Below are positions 8,271 through 55,305 of a stretch of 64,000 nt of DNA, piece after piece. The number at the start of each line of letters is the position of its first letter. Position 1 is the first letter of the stretch. This DNA is from Podospora anserina (taxonomy: Eukaryota), in the NCBI GenBank assembly GCA_017654855.1, contig CM030335.1:2232001-2296000 (forward strand). Reading direction: 5' to 3'. The notes beneath the pieces were generated by a model. It was not told the DNA's origin. It saw nothing but the letters and a program-made list of their open reading frames with translations, and ran no database searches. The position numbers and the translations under genes are program-made.

Positions 8271-10199
8271 ATGGCGCCTAAACAACGTAAACCCACCCCA
8301 GGGTCCTCCTCAGCTTCGGGGTCCGCCCCCGCAAAAGCCATTCCCCATATCGACCCCAACAGTTCCTTCACCCCCGAATCTTTCAAGAAGGAACTCGAGT
8401 CTCTCGCTCAAAAAGCACAGTCTGAGACGACCTTGCATTACTTGACAGAGCAATCCATCATCTATCTCAAATCAGCCGCCTTGCTCTCCCTCATTGCGCT
8501 GTACTCCACCGTCTCTCAGCTCAATCTCTCCCCAACTTACGGCTCCATTCCATCATCGAAATGGCACTCCAAGCTTATCATGGCCGGGTGTTTCGCTGGT
8601 TGGTCAACTAACCTCACTCTCAACCGGTTCTTGCCGTTCAAGCCTGAGAAGCTATTGCCCCTGCTGGCCGTTTATGTCCCCGTCGTCCAGTTCTTCTTGG
8701 GGAAGGTCAGCTCAACACTGACGGCACAATGGGGACCTTTGATCACGGAGGGACTGACGCTATTACCACTGGTGACAATCAGTGCGGCTTGTGTGGCTAC
8801 CTACCTCGAGGGTGCAGATTTGCCCGACTTCTTGCCAAGTTGGATTCGGGACGCCTTGCCAGGACTGGGCGGTTATGGGTTTTACAAGCTTTCAGAACAG
8901 ATTCTGGGCGGGTTGGCCGAGGAGCATATTGGACAGTCAGTGTTAAACACAAGAGTGGGCATGGAGCTGGCATTGGCCGGAAGTTATGCGGCTTTGGCGC
9001 CATCAAAGTTGCTGGTTTTTGCTTTGCCAGCCCTTTTGCATACGGCGCTGCTGAACACACATCTTCCTACTGGAAATGCGCTTGCGAACTTGAACAAGGG
9101 TTTGGAGAGCGTTGGTTATGTGGTTTTGGACAGGAAGGAGAGTTTGACGGGATACGTCTCGGTTGTGGACAGCCCGAAGGAGGGATACAGGGTCATGAGA
9201 TGTGATCACTCTTTGTTGGGTGGTGAGTGGGTCAAGTTCTTGAACCAGGGACAGTTCAAGGGCAACCAGGTTGCTGAGCCTATTTATGGTGTTTTTGCCA
9301 TGCTCGAGGCAGTGAGATTGGTCAAGACCCCTGAGAAGATCAAGGATCATGAGGCGAAAGCTCTCGTCATGTAAGTGATGTTGCTGTCTGTGGCTCCATG
9401 GACGGTGGAAAGCTAACATTCATCAGCGGTCTCGGCATCGGCACCACCCCCGCTGCTCTTGTGGCACATGGCATCGACACCACTGTCGTCGAAATCGATC
9501 CTGTGGTGCATGAATTTGCCCTCGAATATTTCCAGCTCCCCAAGAACCATACCGCTGTCATTGAGGATGCGGTCACTTACACCTCCCGTCTGGCAGCTGA
9601 CGAAAAAGGGCAGCGCTTCGATTACATCGTCCATGACGTCTTCACCGGTGGCGCTGAACCCATTCCCCTCTTTACTCTCGAGTTCCTCCAGAACCTGAAC
9701 GCGCTGCTCAAGCCAAACGGAGTCATTGCCATCGTACGTAACACATTCTTATTTTACTCTTGCTAACTTGCTAACACCATGGCAGAACTACGCCGGAGAC
9801 TTCGCCCTCCCCCCACCCCGCATCGTCACCAACACTATCCGCTTTGTCTTCCCCGCTTGCCGTGCCTTCCGCGAGCACCCGCGCGACATGGAGGATTTCA
9901 CCAAGAACCAGAGGGACTTCACCAACATGGTCATGTTCTGCACCAAGGATACTTCTGGAGAAGTCAAGTTCAGGCATCCTAACAACAGAGACCTGCTAAA
10001 CAGCCCGTCGAGACAAGCGTTCTTGTATCCTCAGCATGAAGTCAAAGAGGAGGACTTTGTCAAGGCTGAGGGAGAGGCTGAGGGAGTGTTGAGGGCGAAT
10101 GCTACCGAGAGATTGGTCAAGTGGCATGAAAGCAGTGCGATGGGGCACTGGGGCATCATGAGAACTGTGTTGCCGGATGCGGTTTGGGAGGAGTGGTGA
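8271..10199 (+). CDS. Membrane-anchored spermidine-synthase-like SAM-dependent methyltransferase
   Basis: Introns 9371-9426 and 9734-9785 join three ORFs. N-terminal TM helices, ESLTGYVSVV, RCDHSLLGG, SAM motif ALVIGLGIG, VEIDP and DYIVHDVFTGG. Confidence 0.88.
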
Positions 10200-13100
10200 G
10201 TGTTGGTCGAGGATATTTGTTGTAAATTCTGTGTAAAAGGGACTTGGGGAGGTAATTTCTGTTTTGTCACCGTGCTGGCTTTGGATGCTGTGCGTTTGAT
10301 CAGTTTGGCGAAGCTGAACTGAGGGGCGTTGGGGCGTTCTTCGTTTGTTGGGTATGTCGCTATCGGAACATTGTTGGATATCGTCGGTTTGAGCAATCCT
10401 TTCATGCTTGTTTATGATTCCCAACGTCTTGCCAGCGGACTGAAATATCAGCTAGCTCGCTTTGCAGCTGCTTCCCTCCTGGTCAGGAGCTATGTGGTCC
10501 CGTGTCGCCAAACCCACTACTGTTTCTCCCAGCCAGCAGCTCAGTTTCCACCTGACAAAGAGGTTTCTATCAAAGCGCCATCATTCTGCCAATTACAGCT
10601 CAGCACAAACGCTGCCACCAAACAAGTTCCAATGCCAAACTCTCATGGCACACCGTACGCTTTCACCCTGTTGCCAGCAAGCAATCAACGCTTGTTAGGA
10701 AGTGGTGACGTAAAGCAGACACCGCCAGGGCAAGAGCATATAATCCCCCAGCTGCCCCCGCTCAATCCATCCATCCACTGCATCCTGAACAGAGTTGACC
10801 AAATCAGATACCCTTCTCATCCCCTGGATTTATCGACCAATTGATCATGCTGGCTCGAAGTTTTAGATAAAATCACATCTCAACAACACAGACATCTACC
10901 TCATCCACCAGATCCCACCTCACCTTGCCTAGCCACCTCACCTCACCTTCCACCCAACAACAATTCACCTTACACGACTGGACCCCGAGCATCCGTCAAT
11001 CAGCAAAGGAGAATGGGCCAAGGAGGAGCTAGGGACAGGAGTTCAATTAGGGTGTGTTAACCCGAATGGTGCGTTACTAACCTACAAACTTTGCTAACTT
11101 GACCCTGGAATGTGTCAGAGCTCTGGTATGGAGTTGGTCTGAGAGACAGGAGGCTATCATATCATCCTTCACCTCGGCTGGACTTTATCCAGTGCAGCAG
11201 GCTCAGGATGAGGCGTCACCTAGCAGCCACAATACCGCTCCAAATCCAAGGCCATATACCTAGCCCGTCAGCTCTACATTTGAGTAGCAGTATGTGAGTC
11301 TAGCAGAGCTGTGATGAGCGCGTTGGTTGTGGTGGTTGGGGGGCTAATAATGGGTTAGGGCGGGATGCCTGGACGATTACCTACTGGCTAATGGGATGCG
11401 CCTTCGGAGCAACGCTGTGCACATCGTTGTTGGTCCTTGGCTTGAGCTATCAGACATCTTACCAACTAAACAAGCACACCGCATTCGACATCTTCAGAAT
11501 TGCAGCTCCGTCCGCAAAATTCAGGCCGCCTTTGTCTGCGTTCAACCTACCAACCAGCGTATTTGACGCCACAGTTAACACCAAACGAAGTATGGCTACC
11601 TGTATATATTGATCTTCTTCATTTTTGTTTCCACCTACTTACTCGCCAACGGAAGAGGTCTTGCTATACAGGATCGTCTCCACTGCAGAATAATGCCGCA
11701 CGAGTGTCTGCTCCGGCGACTCTGAATCTGGCAGACTTAGCCTTTACCAGGACCAGCCTCCCTCCAGTCTCTTGAATCATACACCATACACCTGTATCGT
11801 TTCAAGCGCGGTCGTGATGACTACGAAAGAAACCTCCGACAACTTGCAATTCTCATGACGACTATCTCCTCACTGGGCAAGCCCAACGGCACCACTTTTA
11901 CTTCTCGGGGATTTCACAACTTACCTTATTTCACCATCAACACACATCAGTGCCTATATAGAACCCCCTTTTTCCTATGTCAGATGGTGGCCGCACTCTG
12001 ACGGTCTCCAGTAACCACCAACATCCATACCGTCTTACCTTATCTTTCCTACCATACAAGCCAACCGCTTCCACCGATGCCACCTCTGCGGATATCCTCC
12101 ACCAAGCACCGAGTGTTCAACTTCTCCCAGCACCAAGATCTGCTTCAGGATGTCAGGTAACTACTTGAAACAGAACCATCGGGAGATGTTGTTCCCCTGG
12201 TTGAATGGGTCAACCTCCGGTCGGCAAGACATCGTCTTACCAAGAACCAGGAGGAAGTTGGATTTCTTGAGTCTGGGGCCCATTACATGCGGGTGAGACT
12301 TTTCTTTCCCATTCATTTATTCCTACCTACCTTATCTTAGTTGCCATTGCCGCTTTCCTTCAAAGAGAGAACCGGTAACAAGAGCCCGATACACAAGCTG
12401 AACAACTGGAGCAAGCACTACCTTCGCGACGTCAACCTCGGGACAGGCGTGTCATGGCAGTACGATGCACTCTGTCAGGATATGCTCCCAGGCTCAACAG
12501 GACCCTTTGGCGGAACTTTTCCAGAGTCACGGCAACTAATTTACCAACTACGTGTTTTATCGAGACACATTTCCGACAGAGGAGCTGATGGCCAAAAGAC
12601 TTCCTCTGACACGGACCTGGGGACTGATGGATAATGAGATTCTTGTTCAGTTCCGGATTCTTTTATACTTATCCTGATTTCATTTCACTTGCCTCGTTGG
12701 AGCACACTTTACTTTTGTCTTCACCCTACCTACCTACACAAAGGCATACCTGGCCGCCACATGATCATGCCCAACCTGTCAGGCCCCGCCACTTGGAACC
12801 GAAACACGAACCTGACCTACACCTACCTACCTGCAACTACAGCCTCCGCAGTGTCGTCCCCCTGAGCGTGGAAGGATAAAATGGAACCAACACAGCTACG
12901 GGGACGCAAACCCCATCCAAGAACAAACACATACAGGTACCCATGCCAGATTTGGATGAGCTTTCTCTGTCCTTCAGCCTACACATGGACATTAAGCAGT
13001 CTGCGTCTCATAACTACTTATTCTTGGACACCGAGTTCAAGATTCAAGGCGCGGGCCGCAGAGACACCTACCTGGCCTTTCATACCTACCCTGGGCATGA

Positions 13101-15197
13101 AGCAAAGTGTCTACGTGGAAAGTCTGAGAAACCTTTCCGACGTCCGAGTTGCTGTCATATCTTGGCAGCTCCTAGTACGTGAAGCTTTTTTGGTCGCGCG
13201 AGTTCACTTTCGTACTGACTTGAAATAGGGCAAGATCCTTGATGCGCACCGCCGACTGGAATCCTAACCAAGAGTGCTGGTTGACACAGTGACAAGAACG
13301 ACATACGTACCTACCTATGTGGGGCACCTGCAAGGCCCACCTTTCACCAGACCCCACACTGGTGTTTGCTTTAAGGCTGTGTGGGGCAATAAGTGGGGAT
13401 TGGTGGAGAACGATAATTTATAGGCTTTGCTCAGTTTTGGGGGGGAAACTCTCTCTCTTATCAATACAACGCTTTTCCTCCTCAACTTTGATGATATTTT
13501 GCCTGGTGATTCGAGCCCACGACGACCTCCTACAGCTGTTTTCCTGTTTACCTTTTACACTCAGAACTCTTACTAAGAACAACTCTGTAATACCAATTTT
13601 GTTGATCAATTTCTTGCTTTCCTGACCTCACTTTCGCCGGCAACGACTTTCCTAGGCCGTTGCCCAACAACCTAGTTCTTGCTCTGGAGTCTTGGGCAAA
13701 GGTCAGAAAGCCGAGGTAGTGCACTACTACTTTGAGGTAGTCCATCCACCCATTTACATCTTATTTTGGATAGCAGTTGGTTGCACGTCTCGATGAGGAC
13801 GGTGAAGTCAGCAGCTTGTGGACGCAGCTCCTGCAGCAAGTTGTCGGCAGTCATCAGGTCATTGGCGCTGGCAAGCTCATTACAACCCCATGTCGCAGGG
13901 GCAACATGGATTGATTACAGATATTTGGACACATTTTACTGCTTGGTGTGCTACCTGGGATGCCACGATTCCCGCTGAATGTCGCATTTTGGGTTTGTTT
14001 TTAACACTTGTAAGTTTTCTGTTGGCTGTGCCAAGTCAATGTTGACATTGCCCCTTATTTCCCCTGAGTGCCAAGGCGTTAGTGGTTGGGTTAGGGTTAC
14101 TGTACGAGACAGCGAGGGTGATGGAAGGAATGTTTTGAAATCATTGGGATCAGGGTTTTGTCTATTGAGCGAAAGGTTAAGAGGAAGGAAGTAGAATATT
14201 TTGAGTCAGATTACTCTTTAAACCAAGAGAAGGATTTAGATAATTTTTGTTTCTTTGGAAGGAAGTTTAAGAACTTCAAGGTGACCATCCAAGCTCTCTT
14301 CGTCATCGCCCTCGTCAGCATTAAGATCCGGCCGTTATCAATGGGATTGTTGCCATCAACTATCATTCTCTTCCTCTTCATAAAGATCCCAGCATTGTGG
14401 ACAGGATGTCCAATGGCACATATCGTTCACAGCTCGTCGCCAGAAGAATCACTATTTCGTCTGAACCTACCTCGGGGCTCAATAGGTGCGGGAAGGAAGG
14501 AGCAACAAATCTTCTGCGCCTACCCACGCTGGAGGCCAACGGAGCAGCGAGACGAGACGAATTTGAGTCGGGTGACTTGGGGATGTTGAATTTCAGGGTG
14601 TGCATGTATATAATCTGGTTATCCCGATGGACATTACGATCCTGAATAAACAGTCTCAGTAGTCTCTTGAATGCTTTGGGAAGGCATGCAATGGGAACTC
14701 TGTTGGGCCAAATGCTAGCCGAAGTGGCCTCAGGGATTCCGGCCTGGTCAAAAGACTAGATTTCAAAAGAAATGGGTGCAGGGCGCGAAATCTAAAGGCC
14801 ACGCAACCAGGTTTCACTGTACGGGCAGCCCGACGGCTTTTCTTTTCATCCCAGCAAGCAATTTGAAAATTTGCATTTCGTCGCCTTTTTTTTCGCTGCA
14901 CCTCTAAAGGTCTAGTCCTTACAGTTCTTATTGACCTTATATACTATCTACGCGCATAATAATGGGGTATATTAACACAGTGAAGCAGCTCGTTATAGAG
15001 GCGATTGTGCTCCATACCTACCTCGCTTACCTCTATGTAACCTGACAACTGTTTCTGGCCTCAGTCCCAAGTTCGATTGCCGTTCCCTTACCCACGGCAC
15101 CTCCCCACGCCACTCTATGGTCATGATCCAAACCGCATATCTTATCCTCTTCTCACACTGAATTGTGTCGAAGGAAGATTGTCGTATTCGACTCCAG

Positions 15198-15425
15198 ATG
15201 GGAAACCCAAGGGGAGCTTTTAGAACCGCCCTGGTAATCAAGAACAAAAGACCCCCGGCAGCGAGCGTCACGGCAACCATGACGACGCTTGGATTCGCCA
15301 AGGGGCCAAGGCAAGACGAAAATCATTGTACCCTCTCTCCTCCCTGGTACACGACGAGGTTCAATCGACACTCGCGCCCCATAGCGTGGATCAAGAACCG
15401 GGAGACAGGCCCAGGAGGTCGTTAG
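15198..15425 (+). pseudogene. Divergent copy A of the ~87-aa Cys/Trp domain family
   Basis: PPWYTTRFNRHSRPIAWIKNRETG aligns with PPGFYAHDWKHTGRPVR(W)KKDWETG. The N-terminal Cys motif is absent. Confidence 0.55.
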
Positions 15426-16488
15426 ACGATTCTCACAAGGTGTGAAGGTACCGGTAAGCTGGGATGCTTTTGTTTTTAGCTGGCCGATTGCTTGGACATG
15501 AGAATCGACGTAGTTGATAGAGCGATCCTACTAGACAAGGTCATTATGAAACCAAGAGTCGTCGAGGATGTCACTTTGACAATGAAGAAGGACATATACA
15601 AAAAGGATGACTGCAACGGAGGTAAGCTGCTTGATAGTAGCCTTGAGTATCCAGATAGGCATGTGTTGCACAAGTCCTCGGACCAATTATGCATAGTATA
15701 TTTGCGGCTTAAAGCTAACTTCTAGAATAAGCCTGAGCCTTGGTGGGGGGCTGTCTGCTGCATTCGTGTGGCGTCTTAACTCTGGTCTATGGAATTAGAT
15801 CTTTAGCACCCTCTATCAATGTGTTGACACAGAGAAACATACTCCAGGTAGAAATAGGATGGGGAGGTATAGGTATATGTCTATGAGCTCCTTTCGCAAA
15901 AATACTAGATCCTTCTTACTTGGGAAGGTACCTGTATCTCAGTCGTGAGAGTCCCGGACGAAGTCTTGTTAGTGCAAAGCAAACTTACTGCCAGCGAGAG
16001 TTTATATCTCTATTCCTTCAAAACTACCACCAAAGTTCAATAACCACAAGGTAAGCAAGCTATTGATGCAGCGGATTGTGAAGTAAACTGACAGTAATAT
16101 CAAAGGAAGAGCGACTTAACATCAGAACAGCAAGTACATCACCTCTCTTTTGAAGATACCCACGAACCACTGCCATCTGATATTAGTTTTGGCGGCGTTC
16201 TTGGCTTTGGTTTCAACTTGCGTCCAATGTATCTAGTCTGAACTGCTTGTTATCCCAACAGGCATATAAATAGGTATTCAAGGGAATGGATCCTATTTTG
16301 GGTCCGGCGTCAAGTGAATTTTGTCCTGCGGGCTTGCTCCTGTCCCCACAATTCCCTCCGTCCAGCAGCGCTCTTGAGCAGCTCTTATCCCCTTCTTCTG
16401 TCCGTTTCCTCGCGACTGTCACCAAGACCTCCAACCACGCAAAGAAAACTCCAATTCGACTACACACAAATACAGATTTTATCACAAC

Positions 16489-16755
16489 ATGGCCTCAACT
16501 ACCGACAACTCCACGTACCTGCGCCGCTGCCAGTGTGACCGTGATGAGTGTGAAAGAAATCTGCGACGCCTTGCGATACTAATGATGACGAATTCATCAC
16601 TTCATAAGCCTAATGGCGCTACCGTCACTCCCCCCAGTTTTTCCACGCGCGACTGGCTACACATCGGATGACCCGTCCGTTGGATCAAGGACTGGGACAC
16701 TGGGGTGATTCGCAGACGATGTCTGATGGACGACCTCTGGGATAAGCAGGAGTGA
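16489..16755 (+). pseudogene. Copy B of the ~87-aa Cys/Trp domain family, with an internal TGA
   Basis: CACAACATG start. MASTTDNSTYLRRCQCDRDECERNLRRLAILMM...KPNGATVTPPSFSTRDWLHIG*PVRWIKDWDTGVIRRRCLMDDLWDKQE*. The TGA at 16669-16671 replaces the conserved Arg. Confidence 0.8.
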
Positions 16756-17372
16756 ATTCGGACCTCAGGTAAGTCAACATCATCAGAAACTATCGGTTTA
16801 GGGCCAAGTATCAGAGGCTAGTGACGAATGATCAAATCATGTTTCATTTTGGGTTATTCGGAGCGGCGGCAACGCGAAGTTGCGGATATGAAGCCACCAA
16901 AAGTGTCACCAAATCATTCTCTACGTACGTATCGCCTCAATTTAATAAGCAATTAAACTTTCATTGAGCATATTTCCTAACCATAATATGTAGAATTGAA
17001 CTACCACGCTGAATCGACTGCATAGAGACATGAGCTTCAGGTTGTTTTCAAAAAGGAGCTCGAGGAGGAGTCTGGGAGTTGAGAGCAAGAGAGCATTTGA
17101 TAACAGCACCCAGCATGTTGTATTTTCCATTTTGCGAAATTTGTATTGTAGAATGAGTGTTCGACATTGCCTACCTACCTTACACCGGCCTTGCATTTCA
17201 TAAATACATCAACCCGCAAACAGTCCCCTGTTTTTTCTATTTTACCCTCTACGTAAGGTACGCACAATCCTAAACGTGTGGTCTGCTCGACATGTCCAGA
17301 ACAGACAATCGCATGCATCATCTCGAGCCCTGTTCACCACGGCCACCATTACCGCGCATCTATAAGAGATAG

Positions 17373-17660
17373 ATGGAACCCAGCTTCAGCCCGCCTAAGG
17401 TACCTTCGGTTTCTCTTACGAGCAAAGTCGTCACTATCGACAAAATCAAGGAGATGCCGAAGGAGTCCAGGACCACGAAAACCTGGGACATAGAAGAAGA
17501 GACTGAAAATGTGTCTTTGGGCAGCGCTTATCGTCGGACGCCATACTCACTTTCGCAAGTTCCGAGGGGGGCCTGCCCACCTCACCTTGGCTTTTGGAGA
17601 CATGATTGGCAGCCTAGGCATTGAACGTCCTGTTCGCTGGATCACTTGGAGAAGACAGGT
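17373..17660 (+). pseudogene. Degenerate copy C of the Cys/Trp domain family, frameshifted
   Basis: GFWRHDWQ followed, after a frameshift, by IERPVRWITW, matching the family core. Confidence 0.55.
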
Positions 17661-18149
17661 AGAAGACTTTGACTTTAGATAACTTCAATGACGAGGACCT
17701 CGAGAGTACAAAGTAAACAATGACTTCATTTCACACATCAACAGCGTGAAACTAGCTGTGACTGAAAGGATAGAGACATCGGGATTCTTCAGATTTGAGA
17801 GCTTGACTAGACGTCTTATGTGGTTTGTCGAGTCATCATTCATAACTGTGACTGAGCATTTGTTTATCATTCTACAGTTACGCCGGGGGCCAGGTCTCCA
17901 AAGACCTGTACCGGACTGCTAACATCCGCGTAGGAATTGCTGTTGGTCTGTCAGCACGTGCATCGTTGCGTCTGGATTGCTCGGTTTATGCTTCCGGTCA
18001 ATATTTCATCTGAGCACTCTTCCTTTTTTTATTAATCCCCCCACTTGTTAGTGCAAAAGAACTATTCCCATCGGCAATCACACTGGTACTTGCAACCACA
18101 CTTCCTGACGCAACTTCAGTTGCTTCACCCACATAAGGTAGCCACAAAA

Positions 18150-18668
18150 ATGACCGCAAACACCACCGAGGACCACAAGCTCCGCTGCCAATGCGGCAGA
18201 AGCGAGTGTGAAGAACGAAACCGGAGAATGGCCAAGATCGCGATGGCCGTTGCCTCGGCCTTCCTACCCAACGGCGCGACGCTGGTCCCTCCCGGCTTCT
18301 ACGCCCACGACTGGAAACACACCGGTCGCCCGGTCCGCTAGAAGAAGGACTGGGAAACCGGTGTTGTCCGACCCCGCAACTTGATGGATGATCTCCATGA
18401 TCAAATATCCATGTCCGTCTCAGAAGATCATCAGCCACGCTGCCAGTGTGGCAGGGATGGATGCGAAGCAATTAATAAACACATGGCCACAGTCACGATG
18501 GCCATCGCGTCAGCTTCGCTTCCGAACGGCAGCACCGTCAATCCCCCGACCTTTTACCAGCGTAACTGGCGACACACCGGACGTCCGCTGGTTTGGAAGA
18601 AGGATTGGGATACGGGCGTTGTTCGACCACGCTGTCTCATGGACGACTTCCGCGAGAAGGATAGGTAG
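18150..18668 (+). CDS. Two-domain (2 x ~87 aa) Cys/Trp protein interrupted by one in-frame TAG at 18339-18341; edited gene or pseudogene
   Basis: CACAAAAATG start. Domain 1 (18150) and domain 2 (18411) are in one frame, 261 nt apart, and align end to end. The TAG falls where domain 2 and copies A, B, C, E and F have Trp. Confidence 0.8.
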
Positions 18669-19223
18669 GTGCAGAATTAATGTCTTGATTCTTCGCGTAG
18701 AAGGAATTACATCTGACTCTGTCATAGAAAACCACCAAATCATGAAGATCGTTGAGTTGCTGTTGGTCACGAAGGTCCAGTCTGTGGTCAGAGCCTGGTG
18801 AGTGGCAAAAGAGACTCGGTTCTGACTTTTGAGTAAAATCACAGCACAGATTTCATTAACGGTTCTTGGGATATATCCTCAGATTATGGCAACCAACTAC
18901 AAGTCGATCGTAATCACCGGAAGAGCTAGTACGATAGGGCACTAGGTGGAAAGGTTGAGTGAAGGTACGGTTTGAGTGGGACAGTGTAGGTAGGATAGGA
19001 AATGGGAGAGTGTACGATATGCCTATCTTTCAATTCTCTCTCGAGTGCCCTTACTTTTGAACCTAGACACTCAGAAACTCGGGTCTATACCTTTAACAAG
19101 TTAAACCTGTCAAACTTAGAAAAGTGGGAATCTTTAACCCCCTTCCCCACTACACGTTTATATCCTACAATACTCGCCAAGCCACTCGAGAAAAACACTT
19201 AGACTTAAGATTTTGAGATTCTT

Positions 19224-19313
19224 CCCTTCTTTCCCCTTCTTTCCCCTTCTTTCCCCTTCTTTCCCCTTCTTTCCCCTTCTTTCCCCTTCTTTCCCCTTCT
19301 TTCCCCTTCTTTC
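19224..19313. repeat. Tandem 10-mer (TTCCCCTTCT) x ~9
   Basis: Pure pyrimidine tandem array, directly visible. Confidence 0.95.
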
Positions 19314-19669
19314 TTTCCTTTGCTTCCACAGCACAGTACTACAAGACGACAATCCCAGCTTGTCTTGATATGACTCCAGATCTTCGGGGAACCATATCAT
19401 ATCTCTCAACCCATCCCTAGAATGTCACAGCCACAAAGCTCTCACCATGGCGACCCCTAGCATCCACCGCAACAAACGACACTCTAATGGTGAACACCAA
19501 AGAGAACCGGCGGATGACCGGTCATCGGGCCCGAAGTGGGTCCGGAAGATGATCACCGCCAATATATTTCACCCTCGTTGTCCAACCTCTCCTGAACATG
19601 ACGAAGTGGCAGAATGATGAAAACCAACTGAGCCGCCGCTGCCGACACCCATCGAAGGTCATGTGGAGC

Positions 19670-19748
19670 CAGGGTGGGCAGTAAGTCAAGTCAAGCCAAG
19701 TTTGGAGTCTTACTTGGTTTGACTTGACTTGACTTACTGCCCACCCTG
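19670..19748. mobile_element. 79-bp hAT-type MITE (non-autonomous DNA transposon)
   Basis: Perfect 26-bp TIR CAGGGTGGGCAGTAAGTCAAGTCAAG at both ends. 8-bp target-site duplication TGTGGAGC at 19662-19669 and 19749-19756. Confidence 0.9.
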
Positions 19749-20031
19749 TGTGGAGCTTGATGCCAATTGGATAGCATTCAAAAGAAGGAGGGCTGATGAT
19801 GACGCATATTGCGATCACAGAAACTTGAATACACCCGGCCAGAGTAGAAAAAAGGTTGTGGAAGAAATTAAGTTTAGGGATTCACGATAAGAACTTATTT
19901 GTCTGCCTATACAGTCTCGATGAGTAAGATCCCATTTCAACGTCACCCCTTCAGCTCTTCATCTTTTCAGACATCTACCCCTTTTTCTTGCGTCTATTTC
20001 TTCAGCCAACAGTCACCTAGGTAGCTGTAAG

Positions 20032-21420
20032 ATGCTTCACAGGGGACTGGCATTACACTCGCTCAAGACCGCCCTGGAATCATATGGAGGTCAACATTCA
20101 GCTTGTATTGATATGTATGCAATTAGTAAGATTTATGATATATTTATTCATTCCACACCCATACCAGCATCAGGAGACAGCCATCTCTACAGAATGCAAG
20201 GCCCTGCTGGGACTCGTCCCTCCAACGGTAGAAAATAGGGATTTCTTGACGCAACGAGCGACTTTGCTAATGGTTTAAGGTGGTGGTATAGAGTATTTAT
20301 GAATATAACCAGCCCTGGAACAACGATCCCTTTTGACACATTCAAAACTCATCAAGACATATTGAATCAGTCCCCCGCGTGGTTGGAAATTGGACCACAA
20401 TTGAAAGTCTGCTAGTTTCTTCCCCTCTCTTTTGTCTGATACTGACGCGCGCTGGTACAACACGGAGTTGGCTCACGCTACCAGAATTGCGTCCCCCCCC
20501 CAAACGATCCGAAGCGTTACCGCGCGGTCCGCGAATCCGTCCCAGTCTCGCAAAAAGAAAACAAACATTTCCAAAATTCAAAAGAAATGGCAAGATGTAT
20601 GTATCGGATTCCCAGAACTTGAATCTCCTGTCATCCTTCTGACATAAATACCAACCAGGGGCAGACCTCAAATGCGCAGAACCCCGGTCACCAGAAGACC
20701 GATGATGAGGAGAAAGCCTCAGATTTGGCGGAGAGCTTTCCTGAGTTTGAGCATGTGATCGGCTGTGTTTGTGGCGAGATCTATGAGGGAAGACTACGAG
20801 CATTAGCGATCACAGTGATGACTCATGATTTCCCTCGGCGGCTACTGATTTGGAAGAGAGACTGGAAGTCGGGGAAGATCAGTTCCCGCAACAAAATGGA
20901 CGACATATATGAGAAATGAAGCCATGCCGCGAGATTCCATGGCGATTTCAATTTGGTATCTCAAGGTACGATACATGACCAGTCGTTCCTTTTCAGTTTC
21001 TCTTATGACAGATGAAAGTCTTAACATGTTGGAAATAGGTGACCTGGACTTTCCAAAACCCTCTATCGAGGAGAAGAACCTTACAGCGTTGGAAGTTTGC
21101 GGCAGGAGAGGGTGACTGTGGTTGTGGTCCAATCTGCGAGGCACGACTTTGGTCCCTTGCTATCACTGTCATGCCACATCAAGCGCGCCATAAACCCAAT
21201 GGAACTATAGCATCGCGCCCCCTAAGCTCGATAAGAGGACTCGCAAGTTGTCGAGGCGGCCTTTGATGTGGAAGCAGGACTGGACTCCCAGAAGCTCAGG
21301 CTCACATTGGAATGACAGAGGTACGGCGTTTTGTCCGTCACCGGGCGAGAGTCCTTGCATGGAAAGACCATACGAAGGAAAAGGGCAAAGGGCTGAACTT
21401 GGAGGATGATTCCTATAGGA
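20032..21420 (+). pseudogene. Degenerate multi-exon gene ending in copies E, F and G of the Cys/Trp domain
   Basis: Intron 20597-20658 (GTATGT...CTGAC...CAG) joins KKWQD to GQTS...CVCGEIYEGRLRALAITVM...RRLLIWKRDWKSGKISSRNKMDD (E, ends 20919). F: CGCGPICEARLWSLAITVM...KPNG, frameshift, RRPLMWKQDW (21110-21283). G: RHRARVLAWKD...NLEDD (~21320-21420). Confidence 0.6.
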
Positions 21421-21492
21421 TACCCAAGGGACGGGGTCATGGATCAAATCTCATGTTCACATTGCGCTTTTAGAACTTCAGGCTCTCATTAA

Positions 21493-22554
21493 GTGCTTAT
21501 GCAGGAACCTATAAGGTCATCTCAGCTTGATTTACTTGGCATTCATCCAAAGATCTATAATACTAACGAGTGGGTACCAAGAATAGCGGCTTCAGTCCTC
21601 TGTCGAAGGATGGCTTGTTCCAGCCTTCCGTCTCTAAATCAGCAACTGCCTTCGCTTTCCTCGGCCTTTTGCTCCAGAAAACCCCAACCAGACACAGTTG
21701 AAAGCGACCACCTCATTACAGAAACCTCGCATGGTAAGGTTTGCGTCATCATGAAGTTGCCCAACATCGCCGCCCCAGCGTTGATGCCGTCTCCTCACAT
21801 ACTTCCGTCCAGCTTCGGCCTTGAGGCCACACCTTGAACTCCTCGCCAGGGCACAAAGAGACACGTAAAAGTGTCCTCAGAATCCCTTAACCAGGATCTC
21901 AAGCGTCGTACCACCGCATCCTTACCGCCGTCCTCCGAACTACTCCCGTCCGGCCGTACCCGCGAGGAAACGGAGGCCCGTCCTGCTCCCAAGGCGCACC
22001 AAAAGGAGTATCAACTCATCACCGCTTTCACGCACCAGATACAAGCGTCGCAACACCGAGGACTTGGACAACGACCAAGGGAACTTTCATACAGCCAAGC
22101 CTCCGGTCAAGCAACAACGCGTGACGGAATGTGTCCTCTCAGCTCGTTCCAAGCGTCCTTGCCTGTGTCATCTACACCCGCTCACAATGACACCCCGGAT
22201 GCGACTCAAGCTTCACAACAACCCAAATGTCCGACTCCTGATCGCGAGATTTAGGTTCCTGCCAGCCCAAGCCCCGTGATTTACTCTCTTGTCTCGTACA
22301 AGCTGGGGCCAGAGATCAGGGAAAGCTCTCCGGGCAATGCGCAGCGGATTCTGCTCAAGTAACAAGACGAAAGATTATCACTGCTTCGATCTCGGCAAAT
22401 GTTTGTCCCATTACAGGCTATACGACAAATGAGTTTAGTGAGCCGGAAGAGGGATATTGCTAAGTATCTTGAATGTGATACTTGCAAAATGGGCTTGGAT
22501 CAGGTCAGTTGGATCTCGATCGTTCTTTACAACTGGGGCATGACCGAAGACTGA
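21493..22554 (+). pseudogene. Possible pseudogene: long S/P/T-rich frame with three in-frame stops
   Basis: ORFs 21493-21837 and 21871-22254 and the downstream sequence share one frame broken by TGA, TAG and TAA. No family recognised. Confidence 0.35.
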
Positions 22555-24122
22555 CAGTGTACAAAGCAGCTTCTTGATTGAGTATATCGACCTCAATTTC
22601 AACCTGTCTTTGAGCCGACGACATCATGAAGAAGAGCTCTACTGGACCCTACTGAGAATCAGTATTTGCAAAGCGGAAGGAGATAAACCTCCAGTCGTGA
22701 TTCGAAGCTGATCTGGAGCGGAGGGGACAAGATCGTGTCAAAAAGGTGGAGGCTTAATGGAATTTTATCCACACAATTTGGGTCGTGAAGTTGCTCTGAG
22801 ATGGGTGTTTGCGATTTGTGAGGAAGCACGGTGAAGATGAAATGATACTGTAACGCAGTGCTCTTGTCACACTTCATTGTGTGTACATATTTGCTTGATA
22901 GCAACTTTGCCTATGAAAGTGACAAAGCAAATGCATGCTGTGAGCACGAAATAATGTTGGAGCATGTGCAATAAGGCCAGCTGGAGCTGGGCCGGCAAGA
23001 GATGATGGTGCAAACGTCAGGGCCTAGAGTCATGTGGGCGAGAGCATCTGACAAGTTTGTAGTTATGATTCCTCGGCGGAAAAGCAAAGAGGGTGGCTAC
23101 ATCATGGTAAAGATACGAACGCCACAGACGCGGGACTGCGGGTTTGGGCTGTGGATAGTGTATTATGTGCAGTATTGACTGATAGCGTTTGCTCACAAAC
23201 GGACGAGGCTGACCGTAACTGTGAGTGGTCCACAGCAACTCTCGGAGCTGGGGCAGGACGCCGGTTATGTGGCTGCCCGTCAAAGATCATCTCGGCGGGA
23301 TGACCCTTCTCTGATAACAGCTTGTGAATGACAACAGATGATGTTACATATAAAGAGAAGCCCGGAATATTCTGGTGTTCCCGGAAGACGTATCCGAGAC
23401 ACCCATCCATCCAATAGCGCAGGGCTGCAAAAGAAAGGTCAACTTCAATACCTGCAATAGCGGTGTGTAAGACGGGACGACTGTGTGCCACACACCAGCC
23501 AGTTGCCTCGGCCACGTCATTTCCTTCTCCTGATTGGTGACTTAATGCTTCCTTCCTTTTTGTCCAAATTTTGAGCCATCACCAGAAAACCACAAACATC
23601 TATGAAGACAATCGCCTCGGGCAGCTATGCCGCGGTGAAGCAGCTGTGTTACCGACCTTGTGGTAACTCCCGAATCCACCATTCGAGTGTGCCAAGATTG
23701 GGGGCATTTTCAACCGTTAAGCTCAATTCAGTAGTAAGCTGGTACACTAGGTACGTTCCTACGTTGACGCACAGACCACACACCGTTCATCGTTTATTGC
23801 GACGTCAATGATATTTGTTGCCCACTTACTGCATTGAGGCCTACAAGAAAACAGCAGCTGGCATGCAGCTCTTGTCGCTGCCTGACGTTGGGCAATCACT
23901 CATTTAATTTCTACTATATATACTCTCCACTCTTTTATCCTGTTGTTGTTTCTTCACGTTGCCATCTCCTTCCTCCTTCTATCCCGGAACTCTCGTTTGA
24001 GCTTCTGTTTCTCTGCCAACCCATCAAGTGGTGTTTGGAAGGGATTGAGAAGTAGTCCGCAGCAGTATTGTTGAGGACTCACCTTCCAACACCTACCGGC
24101 GTATTGATGCCCAACATTTACA

Positions 24123-27100
24123 ATGTCCGACGTTCAGGGTCGTGACATAGGCCGCCTGGGACGTGGCCGCGGGGGACGTGGCCGCGGTGGGTTTGAAGAT
24201 AGAGGCGGCCGAGGCGGAGGTGGTTTTGGGGATAGAGGCGGCCGTGGCGGTGGAGGAGGCGGTGGTGGAGGCCGCGGTGGCTACGGTGATCAACGCGGTC
24301 GTGGTGACCCCCGCGGCGGCTTCCGAGGTGGTCGTGGCGGCTTCAATGATCGTGGGCGCAGAGGTGGAGGTGGCTATGGTGGGGGTCGAGGAGGAGGAGG
24401 AGGAGGAGGTGGTGGTGGTGGTTATGCTGGTGGTCCAGATGTTTACACGTAAGTATCACGGCACCGTACATTGTCATGATGAATGACAGGCGCTAACATC
24501 AAATCAAGAGGAGCGAACAACGTCATCCCCCCGCCAAATCCCGACATCACAGCTCTGGAAGACCGCGTCGTCCAGCAAGAAAACTCTGCATTGGGACAGT
24601 TGAGCAAGCTTTCCGTCAGTGATGAGTCCAGCTTTTTCCCACACCGGCCTGGCTTTGGCACTGGTGGTGCTCCGGTTGTACTGTGGGCCAACTACTTTGA
24701 ACTGAACGTCAACACAGCCTCGCTATTCAGTTACAATGTGCTGGTGGCCCCGGAGGAATCTAGCGAGAAGAAAGAGGCCGAACCGAGCTCTGCTAAGGGC
24801 AAGGGCAAGGGAAAGCCCAAGGAGTCCAAGACCAAAGAAGCCAAGGGTACCAAACTCGCCAAGATCATCAAGGCTGCGCTCGACACACTCCCGCCTACCG
24901 TCGTTGTTGCAACCGAGCTGAAGATGAGCGTCGTCTCCAAGGCGAAGCTTCCTCTGCCCCCCAACTCAGTTATTACTGTGGGCATCCCCAGGTCCAATGG
25001 TGGTGAGGAGCGCTGGGATGTTAAGTTCAACGACCCTGTCTCGCTAGATATTGGACGCCTCAAGCAGTACATTCAGAACTTTGAAGACAAGGGTAACGAG
25101 TCTGTCTTTCCCAAGTTCGCGGCCGAAGCTGATGCGCTGGGCGTTGTGCTCGGCCACACCGCACGAAGCAACTCCAACACCGCTGCCGTTGGCAAGAGTC
25201 GCTTTTTTGCTTTCGACGCCAATCGTTCCGAAGTCGGCCCCGTATCGCCAGGCAGTATGATCGATATCCTTCGCGGTTACGTTCAGAGTGTGCGGTTGGC
25301 CACCGGTCGTCTGCTTTTGAACGTCAACGTTACCCACGGTGTCTTCCGGCCGCCCATGCCCTTGCCTGACCTGTTTCAGAGGGTTGGTAACCTCAACACG
25401 AATACACTCAAGCGCTTGCATGGGCTCTTGGCCAAATCGAGAATCCAGTGCCGGGTTCCCACCGAGAAACCTGGTGAGTGGGTGAAGGTTGAGCGCTCTA
25501 TGGCAGGATTCGGCGGGGTTAGAGATGGCAGCGGCGAGGAACGGAGGCCCGAGTTTTTGGAACCCAACGAGTACTTCGGCAAGCCTACCAACGTCAAGTT
25601 TTTTCTTCGGTCGCCCAAAAAGCCGAGACCGGCACCCAAGGGGCTCAAGTATGACACCATGGTATTGGTGTCTGACTATCACATTGCCAAATACAGCGAC
25701 TCCCACGGGGTGCGCAAGGTCGAGACTTTCCCACTGATCAACGCGGGCAGTCCAGCTAGGCCCATTTACCTGCTGGCTGAGTGGTGCTCCCTTTTGCCGG
25801 GACAGCCTATCAAGGCTAAGCTCAGTGCCAGCGAGGCTCAGAGCATGATACAGTTTGCATGCCGAAAGCCATCCTTGAACGCTGTGTCCGTTACCACCAA
25901 TGCCAGAGCTGTTCTTGCACTGGACAACAACAAACTCCTGGAGAAGTTCGGAGTGAGTGTCGATAAGCAGCTCATCACAGTCAAGGGTCGTATGCTTCCA
26001 CCCCCGGCCATGGCGTACCCCAAGAGGAATTCGGTGGAGCTGATCAAGCCCCAAGATGGCGGCTGGCTGCTCAAGGGTGTAAGGGTTTCAAAGCCTGGTA
26101 GGATGATCAAGAACTGGACGCTCTTGGAAGTACAAGGCCAGGCTGATCAGCATGTCAAGGCCACCATGGGCGAGTTTGCGGTATTCATGGCGCAGAGCAT
26201 GGGCATGGCTATCAATAAGAATGCCACACCGGCAAGTGGCTATGAGGTCGCTTCTATGGGTGAGCAAGACTTGAGAGCCGCTTTTCAGGGGATGAAGCCC
26301 AAGCCCGATCTGGTGATCGTTGTGCTTGGCGACCAGGACGCCAACGTATACAACACGGTGAAGAAGCTAGGCGATGTCGAGTTCGGCATTCAGACGGTGT
26401 GCGTGGTGAGGAACAAGATAACGAACAATAAGGGATACTTTACCAACGTCGCGCTCAAGGTCAACCTCAAGTTTGGCGGCGTCAACCACAAACTGCAGAA
26501 CGCTCATCCTCTGCTGAAGGGTGGCAAGACCATGGTGGTGGGTTACGATGTGACACATCCTACCAATCTTCCAACAGGTGCTGGAGAGAACGCGCCCAGT
26601 CTGGTCGGTCTTGTAGCCAGCATCGACTCGGATCTCGGACAGTGGCCTGCTATCGCTTGGCAGAACCCGGCTTCGTGTGGAGCAGCTTGACGTCAAGCTG
26701 GCTGAGAACTTCAAGTCTCGGCTGCGTCTGTGGCAGAAGCACAACGGTGCCAAATTACCTGAAAATATCCTCATTTACCGCGATGGTGTAAGTGAAGGGC
26801 AGTTCAACATGGTTCTGACGTCAGAGCTGCCGCACATCCGGACGGCTTGTAGCCAGATGTATGGCAAGCAGCAACCACGCATCACCCTTATCGTGTCAGT
26901 CAAGCGCCACCAGACTCGATTCTACCCGACTGATCCCCAGCAAACGCACTTCAGGTCGAAGAGCCCCAAGGAGGGCACCGTTGTTGACCGCGGAGTGACC
27001 AATGTGCGATACTGGGACTTCTTCCTCCAAGCCCACGCCTCGCTGCAGGGCACCGCTCGTCCGGCCCATTACACGGTGTTGATCGATGAGATTTTCCGGC

Positions 27101-43215: not shown

Positions 43216-43909
43216 GTCCAGCTGATGGTGCGGGTCACAGTCGTCAGCGAGGGCGACGGATGTGAGCTGCGCCTACGGTGACACGAGGTCTAGAAAGCCT
43301 CTCCTAGTGGCGATGGGAGACGCGAAGGGGTGGTGTTGCGCAGATGTACGGTTGAGGTCGTCAGCTCTGAGCTCTCTGCCTTGTGTGTACTGCCACACTT
43401 GGGTCGGCAAACACAAACAGGTCTCAGGAACGGAGACTCATGGAGTGTGAGGTGAGTTGAGGTCGCCGGGTCTCGATCTGCGGGGTGCTATCTGCAGGCC
43501 TCCCTTGGGGAAAAGGTAAAAGAATTAAGAATTGGAATTGGGTTGATGAGGCAGAGTCGGTGAGGCAATCGGGGAGGTCCCCTGGGGTCCAGAGCGGCAG
43601 TTGGACGGTTGTTATGGAGTTTTTTGAGGGTGAGGCAGTGCAAGCAACGCTATAACATTTGTTTCGAGGTCCAAGATGTCTGGCGCGTGCAGTTACCAAG
43701 GTCGTACTCCAACAAAAGAGCAAAGGAGCGTGATGAATGGAAAATGGGACGAAACAAAGCAGGAAGCAGCAGGGAAAGTGAAGCCGCGCAGAACCACTGA
43801 CGACACAGCGGCTACGAAATTGGACCTGACCTGACCTGGAGACGGAATGGCCTGGGATGAGATGGGAGCTGTGTTTTCCCCTGTTGTTGGGACCCAAAAG
43901 GTGCCAAGA

Positions 43910-53932: not shown

Positions 53933-55305
53933 TCAAATCCTAGCACGCTTTGATGGGCCGGCCACAGGCAGAGGCTCTGCAGACCGTTTCTGGCTGGTGG
54001 TTGTGGGGGAAACGCCAGCCTTGGTTTGACGCCAGCCCTTAATTGTGGCTTGCTTGCTGGCTTGCTTGCCCCTCGACGCCGCTGTTGGTGTGGCCTTCTT
54101 GCGAGTGGCACGCACTGTGGTGGGCGGCGAGGCTGGAGCAAAACGCGGGGCCTCGGGCGTACCGGGAACCTTCTCGACTGCTTCGGCTGGGGTGATTGGG
54201 AGAGTTTGGGCGGCTTCCTCAACCACGTGGTCCTCGATGTCGGTCTCCGCCTCTTCATCTTCAATCGAGATGGCGGGCACATCGGGCTTGGCAACAGGGA
54301 AGAGGAGTCTGGGCTTGACACTGGCGCGGGTGAGTCTTCTCACGGGCGCCTCGACAGCACTTTCCAAACCACCCTCGATATTCTCTGAGGCGCGCTTCTT
54401 GAAGAGGTGGAATTGCTTCTTGCCACGGCTGTTTCTTGTGTTAGCCGAGTGCACTGATGAAAACACAAACAGGGAGCGACGACTTACAATACGGTGACCA
54501 AACCATCCTCGCGCTGAATGGCCTCTTCAATTGTGATCTGGCCTTCGCCGGGAACACTGACCATCTGGCGCTGGCTGCGGCGAGGAGCCGAGGGGGCAGC
54601 GGCCCTTGAGGGCTCGACATAGAAGGGGTTGTCAATGCTGCGGTCGACCTCGGGAATGCGCTCATGCGAGTCGACGTGGATATGGAACGACTCATCCGAG
54701 CCTTGCTCAGTGAAGCTGTCCAAGGTGTGGGCCTGGGTGCGGGCCCTTCTAGGGGAGGGCATGACCTCATCCTCGGCGCGGAACAGGGTGCGGGCAAACG
54801 CTTCCACCTTGGCCTTGGACTCCTCGGTAGGAGGCTTCTGGGGGGTCTTGGCGGGGGTGATTAGCATCCCGGTGCTGCTGCTGGCGACAGTGGTGCGAGG
54901 CGCAAGAAGGCCGGCTGACTTCTTGGTGAAGCCAAGGGCAGAGGCGGCATCGGAAACACTGGCGGCGGTGAGGGTGCGACGAGGAGAATCCATGGCGGCG
55001 ATGCGCTTCTTTTGAAGGGAAAGGCTTGGTGTGCCCATGGTCGACTTCTTCTTTTGGTTGATTGACTTGGGAGAACCCTCTGAAGTTTCCTCGGGCCGGT
55101 CGGAATGTTGCTGATGTTGGCGACGCGATGATGGAACTCTGGGAGAGGGAGTTCGGTTGGCAGCGCGGTTGGCAATACGGGATGACTTGCGAGGAGTGTA
55201 AGGCTCGTAGGAGTCGGAGTAGCCCAGGTGAGGGGCAGGAGGAGTTCTGACTCTGGAGCTGGGAGAAGGAGTCGCCGGGTAGGGTGGCTCCATGATTTCC
55301 GCCAT
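53933..55305 (-). CDS. Hypothetical low-complexity protein rich in S/T-P (CDK-type) sites
   Basis: Two ORFs joined by intron 54487-54429 (GTAAGT...GCTAAC...CAG), giving DGLVTVFRGKK. Motifs LITPAKTP and VKPRLLFP. Confidence 0.8.

Follow-up and report, generated by a model that had tools for sequence, protein, structure and literature searches.

A premature TAG at a conserved tryptophan codon in Podospora anserina, placed in the loop of an exceptionally stable predicted RNA hairpin, as a candidate site of restorative A-to-I editing

When a single stop codon interrupts a gene that otherwise looks sound, has the gene begun to decay, or is the stop corrected in the mRNA before translation? The question is posed by a forward-strand reading frame at 18150–18668 of a 64-kb stretch of Podospora anserina DNA (hereafter the window, to which all coordinates refer). 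From the ATG at 18150 the frame runs through 172 sense positions to a TAG at 18666–18668, with one internal stop, the TAG at 18339–18341 (CGC-TAG-AAG, codon 64). With 63 codons ahead of this stop, unedited translation from the ATG yields a product of 63 aa. A previous interpretation made from the DNA letters (the sequence-only reading) had proposed that the TAG may be edited to UGG in the sexual stage, citing a 172-codon frame with a single TAG, a two-domain protein and a 63-aa unedited product; on all three points the reading frame and its translation bear it out.

The protein is made up of one domain of ∼85 residues repeated in tandem. The two copies, D1 (18150–18404) and D2 (18405–18665), are 58% identical in protein sequence and align without gaps at the DNA level. 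D2 is intact, and D1 is intact save for codon 64; apart from the TAG the frame is unbroken, is backed by homology and retains all the conserved motifs of the family, those of D1 included. The ORF has a GC content of 0.58 against 0.44 in its flanks, and its coding-like composition carries on beyond the stop. GC3 is 0.79 before the TAG and 0.57 after it, the latter value coming from only 21 codons, too few to interpret. An intron that would skip the TAG was considered and ruled out, as the D1–D2 alignment is gapless through the site and no consensus donor flanks it.

The residue lost at codon 64 can be read from the family. A profile built from D1, D2, a paralog in the window (B, described below) and the closest database protein (P0001) was searched against 1.84 billion representative sequences and retrieved 48 proteins at E≤0.001 (13 reaching E≤1e-10), the family pattern being PNG..PP.[FW]Y...RP..W[IK]KDW.TG.[IV]RPR..MDD. 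Of the 46 other rows of the family alignment (A5), 42 have W in the column of the TAG, three have Y and one has F. Within the window, W also occupies the aligned position in all five other copies that retain the segment, in four of which the sequence-only reading had noted TGG: D2 reads GRPLVWKKDW, B (the 16.6-kb copy) PVRWIKDW, the 15.3-kb copy RPIAWIKN, the 20.8-kb copy RLLIWKRDW and the 21.2-kb copy RPLMWKQDW. On the strength of these alignments the ancestral residue at codon 64 is tryptophan, and a G-to-A change has converted the conserved Trp codon of D1 to TAG. The candidate edited adenosine is 18340, and the UGG that editing would create encodes the residue of the homologs.

Most homologs carry a single C-terminal domain behind a variable N-terminus, while two relatives, P0003 and P0008, have two domains. 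The named relatives, obtained from word-indexed protein searches (the third of which scored only 8,000 candidates, dominated by low-complexity words), all belong to the Sordariales: Podospora bellae-mahoneyi (P0001), Cercophora samala (P0002) and Apiosordaria backusii (P0006). A Pfam scan of the window protein and 47 homologs left the domain without a family, a sequence search of the PDB gave no matches, Foldseek searches of the PDB with the full-length and D2 models gave none at E≤0.001, and the ESM Atlas held no usable match for the domain. AlphaFold2 modelled D2 (pLDDT 89.6, pTM 0.74) as a long helix, a β-hairpin and a C-terminal helix, with the first strand of the hairpin starting at the Trp equivalent to the TAG codon; D1 was resolved poorly in the full-length model. 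Judged by the D2 fold, a stop at codon 64 would cut the β-hairpin and the last helix from D1. Long-term purifying selection is evident in the sequence comparisons, with pN 0.24 and pS 0.85 (saturated) between D1 and D2 and a dN/dS of 0.32 between D2 and B.

The terminal TAG (18666–18668) overlaps a GTAGGT donor and lies inside a probable intron of 63 nt (18665–18727, + strand), which has a CTGAC branch site and a TAG acceptor and is located 3′ of the premature stop. Exon 1 (18150–18664) opens with a start codon that has A at −3 (ACAAAAATGACC) and passes through the two tandem domain copies; exon 2 (18728–18755) finishes Arg172, codes for KPPNHEDR and stops at TGA 18753–18755. Since the spliced tail matches the C-terminal tail of the annotated P. 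bellae-mahoneyi protein P0001, we regard the intron as probable and the full CDS as one of 180 codons ending at 18755. A bacterial-type promoter scan returned nothing, its model being bacterial and irrelevant to a fungal host.

Do relatives share the stop? P0001, the closest database protein, is the hypothetical protein QC761_0067300 of P. bellae-mahoneyi (102 aa, with three further members in its sequence cluster). Its start, MDDLHDQ, corresponds to the first in-frame ATG past the TAG (M79), and the protein spans D2, which is open, and the spliced tail. A start placed after the TAG suggests a lesion upstream in P. bellae-mahoneyi too, though not necessarily the same TAG. The annotation pipeline for that species is described as using transcript models with TransDecoder together with ab initio predictors (PMC10936905), and a protein of 102 aa is what a longest-ORF annotator would return if P. 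bellae-mahoneyi also had a stop there (102 aa against 63 aa). The 61-aa model P0002 from Cercophora samala begins mid-domain. The two truncated public models reflect either recurrent in-frame stops in the lineage or systematic mis-annotation of these small genes. Among the annotated proteins searched, no full-length ortholog with W was found.

Taken as annotated, P0001 would suggest that the functional product is the single-domain protein of 102 aa translated from M79, D1 being a dead leader or an upstream ORF. The prevalence of homologs with one C-terminal domain behind a variable N-terminus would fit, and D2 by itself folds confidently. However, M79 has a weak context, with T at −3 and four ATGs ahead of it, one of which is M1 with its A at −3. 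An A at this position of the start codon is favourable in fungi, and the difference between M1 and M79 favours a D1 that is translated over one that serves as a leader. Moreover, D1 keeps every family motif, two-domain relatives exist, and a transcript stopped at codon 64 would itself produce the 102-aa annotation as its longest ORF. We consider translation of D2 on its own as the functional product to be improbable.

The surroundings of the gene bear on the main rival to editing, that of an ordinary young pseudogene in which TGG>TAG is the first disabling mutation within a birth-and-death cluster and in which any RNA structure at the stop is incidental or a mutational hot spot in the DNA. The gene lies in a 15-kb island (9400–24400) that contains no stop-to-stop frame of at least 200 codons, between the Nramp-side genes and an Argonaute gene; the genes outside the island encode Nramp, Argonaute, a protein kinase, Sir2, a P-type ATPase, a tubulin-tyrosine ligase, RNase H2 subunit B and MCM10. 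The island contains six loci of the one small domain family; all lie on the + strand and five are damaged. Paralog B (16489–16752) is a single-domain ORF, whole except that the Arg codon of its G-R-P motif (CGC in D1, CGT in D2) reads TGA. Rescue of this copy by editing is unlikely, because UGA would become Trp and not Arg and because the −1 base is G. The remaining four are a degenerate relic at 11789–11917 (E 0.035), a frameshifted relic at 15174–15436 (E 4.9e-7), a relic with an internal deletion at 20785–20916 (E 9.8e-9) and a frameshifted relic at 21117–21286 that resembles P0006 of Apiosordaria backusii.

The decay of neighbouring copies, already remarked upon in the sequence-only reading, is therefore confirmed: stops, frameshifts, deletions or heavy divergence mark the five other copies, all within 10 kb, and with these five dead or damaged, decay is the local norm. 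The island looks like a tandem birth-and-death cluster, of which the TAG gene is the best-preserved member. While the neighbours fit the definition of a decayed pseudogene, the TAG copy has one lesion and differs from the sister species at 4 of 102 residues. That similarity is no sign of recent constraint, since genic DNA in the species complex is reported to be >98% identical (PMC10936905) and four replacements in 306 nt are about the neutral expectation. The count thus sits comfortably with a young pseudogene, as do the incomplete gene models of both P. bellae-mahoneyi and Cercophora samala. Nor is TGG>TAG a rare type of nonsense change: of the 21 transitions by which a codon of this CDS can become a stop, 6 are of this kind. 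Weighing on the other side are the single lesion and the coding-like composition past the stop. If the stop is common to P. bellae-mahoneyi, it has also survived speciation while the copy in the window gained no other lesion, an argument that is weak at <2% divergence. An ordinary young pseudogene is in our judgement possible, if somewhat improbable.

Other features of this region and its family were recorded alongside. About 1 kb 3′ of the gene, at 19670–19748, lies an inverted repeat whose 30-nt arms are 97% complementary and 19 nt apart (hairpin of −30.3 kcal/mol); in an Rfam search of 9000–25000 it gave just two sub-threshold miRNA-like matches (32.6 bits, where the gathering score is 75). 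At 24171–24395, directly upstream of the Argonaute frame (24483–26690), stand four degenerate, GGN-rich direct repeats of 33 nt, which possibly represent a Gly/Arg-rich N-terminal region of the Argonaute gene. A weak family match at 43754–43807 was inspected and proved spurious.

A gene duplicated both internally and in tandem is also a possible target for repeat-induced point mutation (RIP), and TGG>TAG, being CpA>TpA on the opposite strand, is the classic RIP change; the sequence-only reading had accordingly raised RIP as the alternative origin of the TAG. The dinucleotide indices and the absence of DNA repeats between the copies give this origin no support. The ORF has a TpA/ApT of 0.41 and a (CpA+TpG)/(ApC+GpT) of 1.11, for a composite index of −0.70, and the composite RIP index is positive in none of the 64 bins of 1 kb into which the window was divided. 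No direct DNA repeat of at least 25 nt joins any two copies within 9400–24400. Aligned as DNA, D1, D2 and B average 77% column identity over ∼260 nt, and RIP needs higher identity and length than this. The signs of a RIP-mutated duplicate, namely clustered transitions, shifted indices and a near-identical DNA partner, are missing; what is present is one transition with no cluster around it, and a single G>A transition requires no special mechanism. RIP acting on the internal duplication or on the tandem paralogs is thus very improbable as the source of the stop.

We then compare the site with what is known of fungal editing, bearing in mind that the cis rules applied here come from Fusarium and Neurospora and that the host is Podospora. 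Editing is termed a common feature of Sordariomycetes (PMC11087585), and the enzyme is described as Tad2/Tad3 with the sexual-stage cofactor Ame1 (PMC11087585, PMC11156358). In Fusarium graminearum the reported preferences are C or U at −2, U at −1, A or G at +1, +3 and +4, and G at +2 (PMC9600606). The context here, C-U-A-G-A-A-G, agrees with them at five of the six flanking positions (−2 to +4) and includes the U-A-G-A-A string exactly as the sequence-only reading gave it. The exception is +2, where the site has A, the depleted base; this position is reported as the sole one at which the depleted state left the number of F. graminearum sites unlowered (PMC9600606). At least five preferred flanking positions are found at 181 of the 973 TAGs in the window.

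For Podospora itself, up-regulation of ADAT genes during sexual development of P. anserina has been described (bioRxiv 10.1101/2024.12.09.627484), and the species has NMD and EJC components (Lelandais et al., PMC9801653); the latter article makes no mention of editing, and the literature searched contained no Podospora editing site or catalogue.

The surroundings of the adenosine are more distinctive in structure. The transcript is predicted to form a hairpin over 18319–18364 (+ strand), with an outer stem (18319–18326/18357–18364), an inner stem (18329–18336/18347–18354) and a loop at 18337–18346 (GCUAGAAGAA). A18340 lies in this 10-nt loop, closed by the two 8-bp stems, and the MFE over 51 nt is −31.3 kcal/mol. 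With eight flank sizes from ±15 to ±100 nt, the P(unpaired) of A18340 was 0.99–1.00, always in the same hairpin loop. When 51-nt windows were taken in 3-nt steps along both strands of the 64 kb, 42,634 in all (mean −8.7, SD 4.7), the one with the TAG hairpin had the lowest MFE. When the 973 TAG trinucleotides on both strands were folded with ±30 nt, the TAG at 18339 came second by MFE (−34.4), and it came first among the 297 that are inside hairpin loops. An Rfam search of 9000–25000 gave no match at the TAG hairpin.

Controls by synonymous recoding locate what is unusual in this structure. The 16 flanking codons were varied synonymously with the TAG held fixed, and none of 2,000 codon-usage-weighted and none of 2,000 uniform recodings was as stable as the actual sequence; when a larger set of 30,000 weighted recodings was made, 7 matched its MFE (mean −13.1, SD 4.0). 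The corresponding segment is unremarkable in D2 (−12.3 kcal/mol, 61% of recodings as stable) and intermediate or marginal in B (−17.3 kcal/mol, 6.9% as stable). From these comparisons the stem appears to be made from synonymous positions. The site stays in a hairpin loop in ∼70% of synonymous recodings, so its loop position is not special in itself and the stem is the exceptional part.

Two further TAGs on the + strand, both within local structures of high stability, were noted in the survey. The TAG at 54751 is in a hairpin loop with six of six preferred flanking bases (MFE −27.4), and that at 54829 is paired (MFE −34.6). Both are non-coding on this strand, as the + frames there are full of stops and the long frames are on the − strand.

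More than 62% of F. graminearum editing sites, folded with ±30 nt, are reported to be in hairpin loops, and editing level is reported to rise with hairpin stability both in this species and in N. crassa (PMC9600606). The frequent occurrence of the site in a loop among recodings speaks for the young pseudogene. That reading leaves unexplained, however, why synonymous positions should combine into a hairpin that is centred on the stop and surpasses in stability every other 51-nt stretch sampled across the 64 kb. A version in which the hairpin is a mutational hot spot would close this gap: in single-stranded DNA the hairpin may expose the loop cytosine of the opposite strand and so favour its deamination, and the coincidence of stop and hairpin would then be accounted for without editing.

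Restorative editing is the reading that we favour, on account of the single lesion, the W column, the flanking context, the hairpin loop, the start of P0001 and the context of M1. The Trp column, the five of six context positions and the exceptional hairpin all fit, and strengthen, the editing proposed in the sequence-only reading, whose interpretation is partly supported; its RIP alternative is not supported. The site is, by analogy with known cases, a credible candidate for the restorative A-to-I editing of other Sordariomycetes. Against it count the loop of 10 nt where the anticodon loop has 7, the depleted base at +2, the dead neighbouring paralogs, the four residue differences from P0001 and the failure to find an annotated full-length ortholog with W. 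On balance we regard it as an even question whether the TAG is a premature-stop-correcting editing site that gives a full-length protein in sexual tissue.

If it is, the mRNA would offer the enzyme a UAG in a loop closed by a very stable stem, preceded by U at −1 and followed by purines at +1, +3 and +4, a combination of loop and context expected to be a preferred substrate of the sexual-stage Tad2/Tad3/Ame1 deaminase of Sordariomycetes. Deamination of A18340 to inosine in developing perithecia would let the UAG be read as UGG (Trp), and a full-length two-domain protein of 180 aa would be made. In vegetative hyphae, translation would end at 63 residues, ahead of the β-hairpin and last helix of the first domain, and the unedited mRNA would probably be a target of nonsense-mediated decay, as its stop lies upstream of the 3′ intron. 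A stronger form of the proposal holds that the double-stem hairpin of 46 nt is an evolved, dedicated cis-acting enhancer of editing, the synonymous sites of eight flanking codons per side having been selected after or while Trp became TAG, with the protein strictly perithecium-specific and the unedited mRNA cleared by NMD. This stronger form we consider unlikely.

Restorative editing of premature stops is established yet debated, as either adaptive or harm-permitting, and has been characterised mainly in Fusarium and Neurospora. Restorative editing itself is thus already known, and what is new in this analysis is the exceptional RNA hairpin at the TAG. If the stronger form is true, Podospora would gain its first described switch by restorative editing, and the locus would be one of the few whose coding sequence visibly records selection for RNA structure at an editing site. 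As a site in a genetic model, it offers a clean test case: the stem apparently consists of synonymous positions, so that it could be broken without changing the protein and both editing and fitness could be measured. It also opens a question of order, in that a hairpin older than the stop would speak for the harm-permitting view and a hairpin younger than the stop for the adaptive one. Apart from editing, the locus flags an unannotated fungal domain family that folds confidently, and it may illustrate how editing sites yield truncated gene models in public annotations.

Three known systems invite comparison. The first concerns the protein. UniRef has given P0001 an automatic name that places it with Post-SET motif proteins, and the likeness is a C-x-C-x4-C motif in D1, D2 and B. 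In contrast to such proteins, the SET domain is absent and there are zero Pfam matches, and the motif is missing from most homologs. The name therefore reflects a motif match and not family membership.

The second is the tRNA anticodon stem-loop, the native substrate of Tad2/Tad3 (ADAT2/3), in which, as described, the target A likewise follows a U and is exposed in a loop on a G+C-rich stem (PMC11156358, PMC11169179). A tRNA scan of the 64-kb window found no tRNA gene. The hairpin studied here differs in having a loop of 10 nt as against 7, and stems of 8+8 bp as against 5 bp.

The closest parallel is with the PSC (premature stop codon correction) pseudogenes of F. graminearum and N. crassa, such as PUK1 and CHE1, which have a TGG-derived in-frame TAG in an otherwise intact ORF (PMC10776026, PMC11169179). 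In F. graminearum, 71 pseudogenes are reported in which perithecial editing changes a premature TAG to UGG; the TAGs of these PSC genes are mostly TGG-derived, and 43 of the 71 genes encode hypothetical proteins (PMC10776026). Editing sites are described as leading to truncated or falsely spliced gene models in relatives, and the mis-annotation of PSC orthologs as truncated proteins (PMC11169179) may have its counterpart here. The Podospora locus further resembles them in having U at −1, purines at +1 and +3 and a target in a hairpin loop, and in encoding a hypothetical protein apparently confined to filamentous ascomycetes. It differs in belonging to Podospora and in being surrounded by dead paralogs; and its hairpin is far stronger than the generic preference for hairpin loops, and apparently built from synonymous sites.
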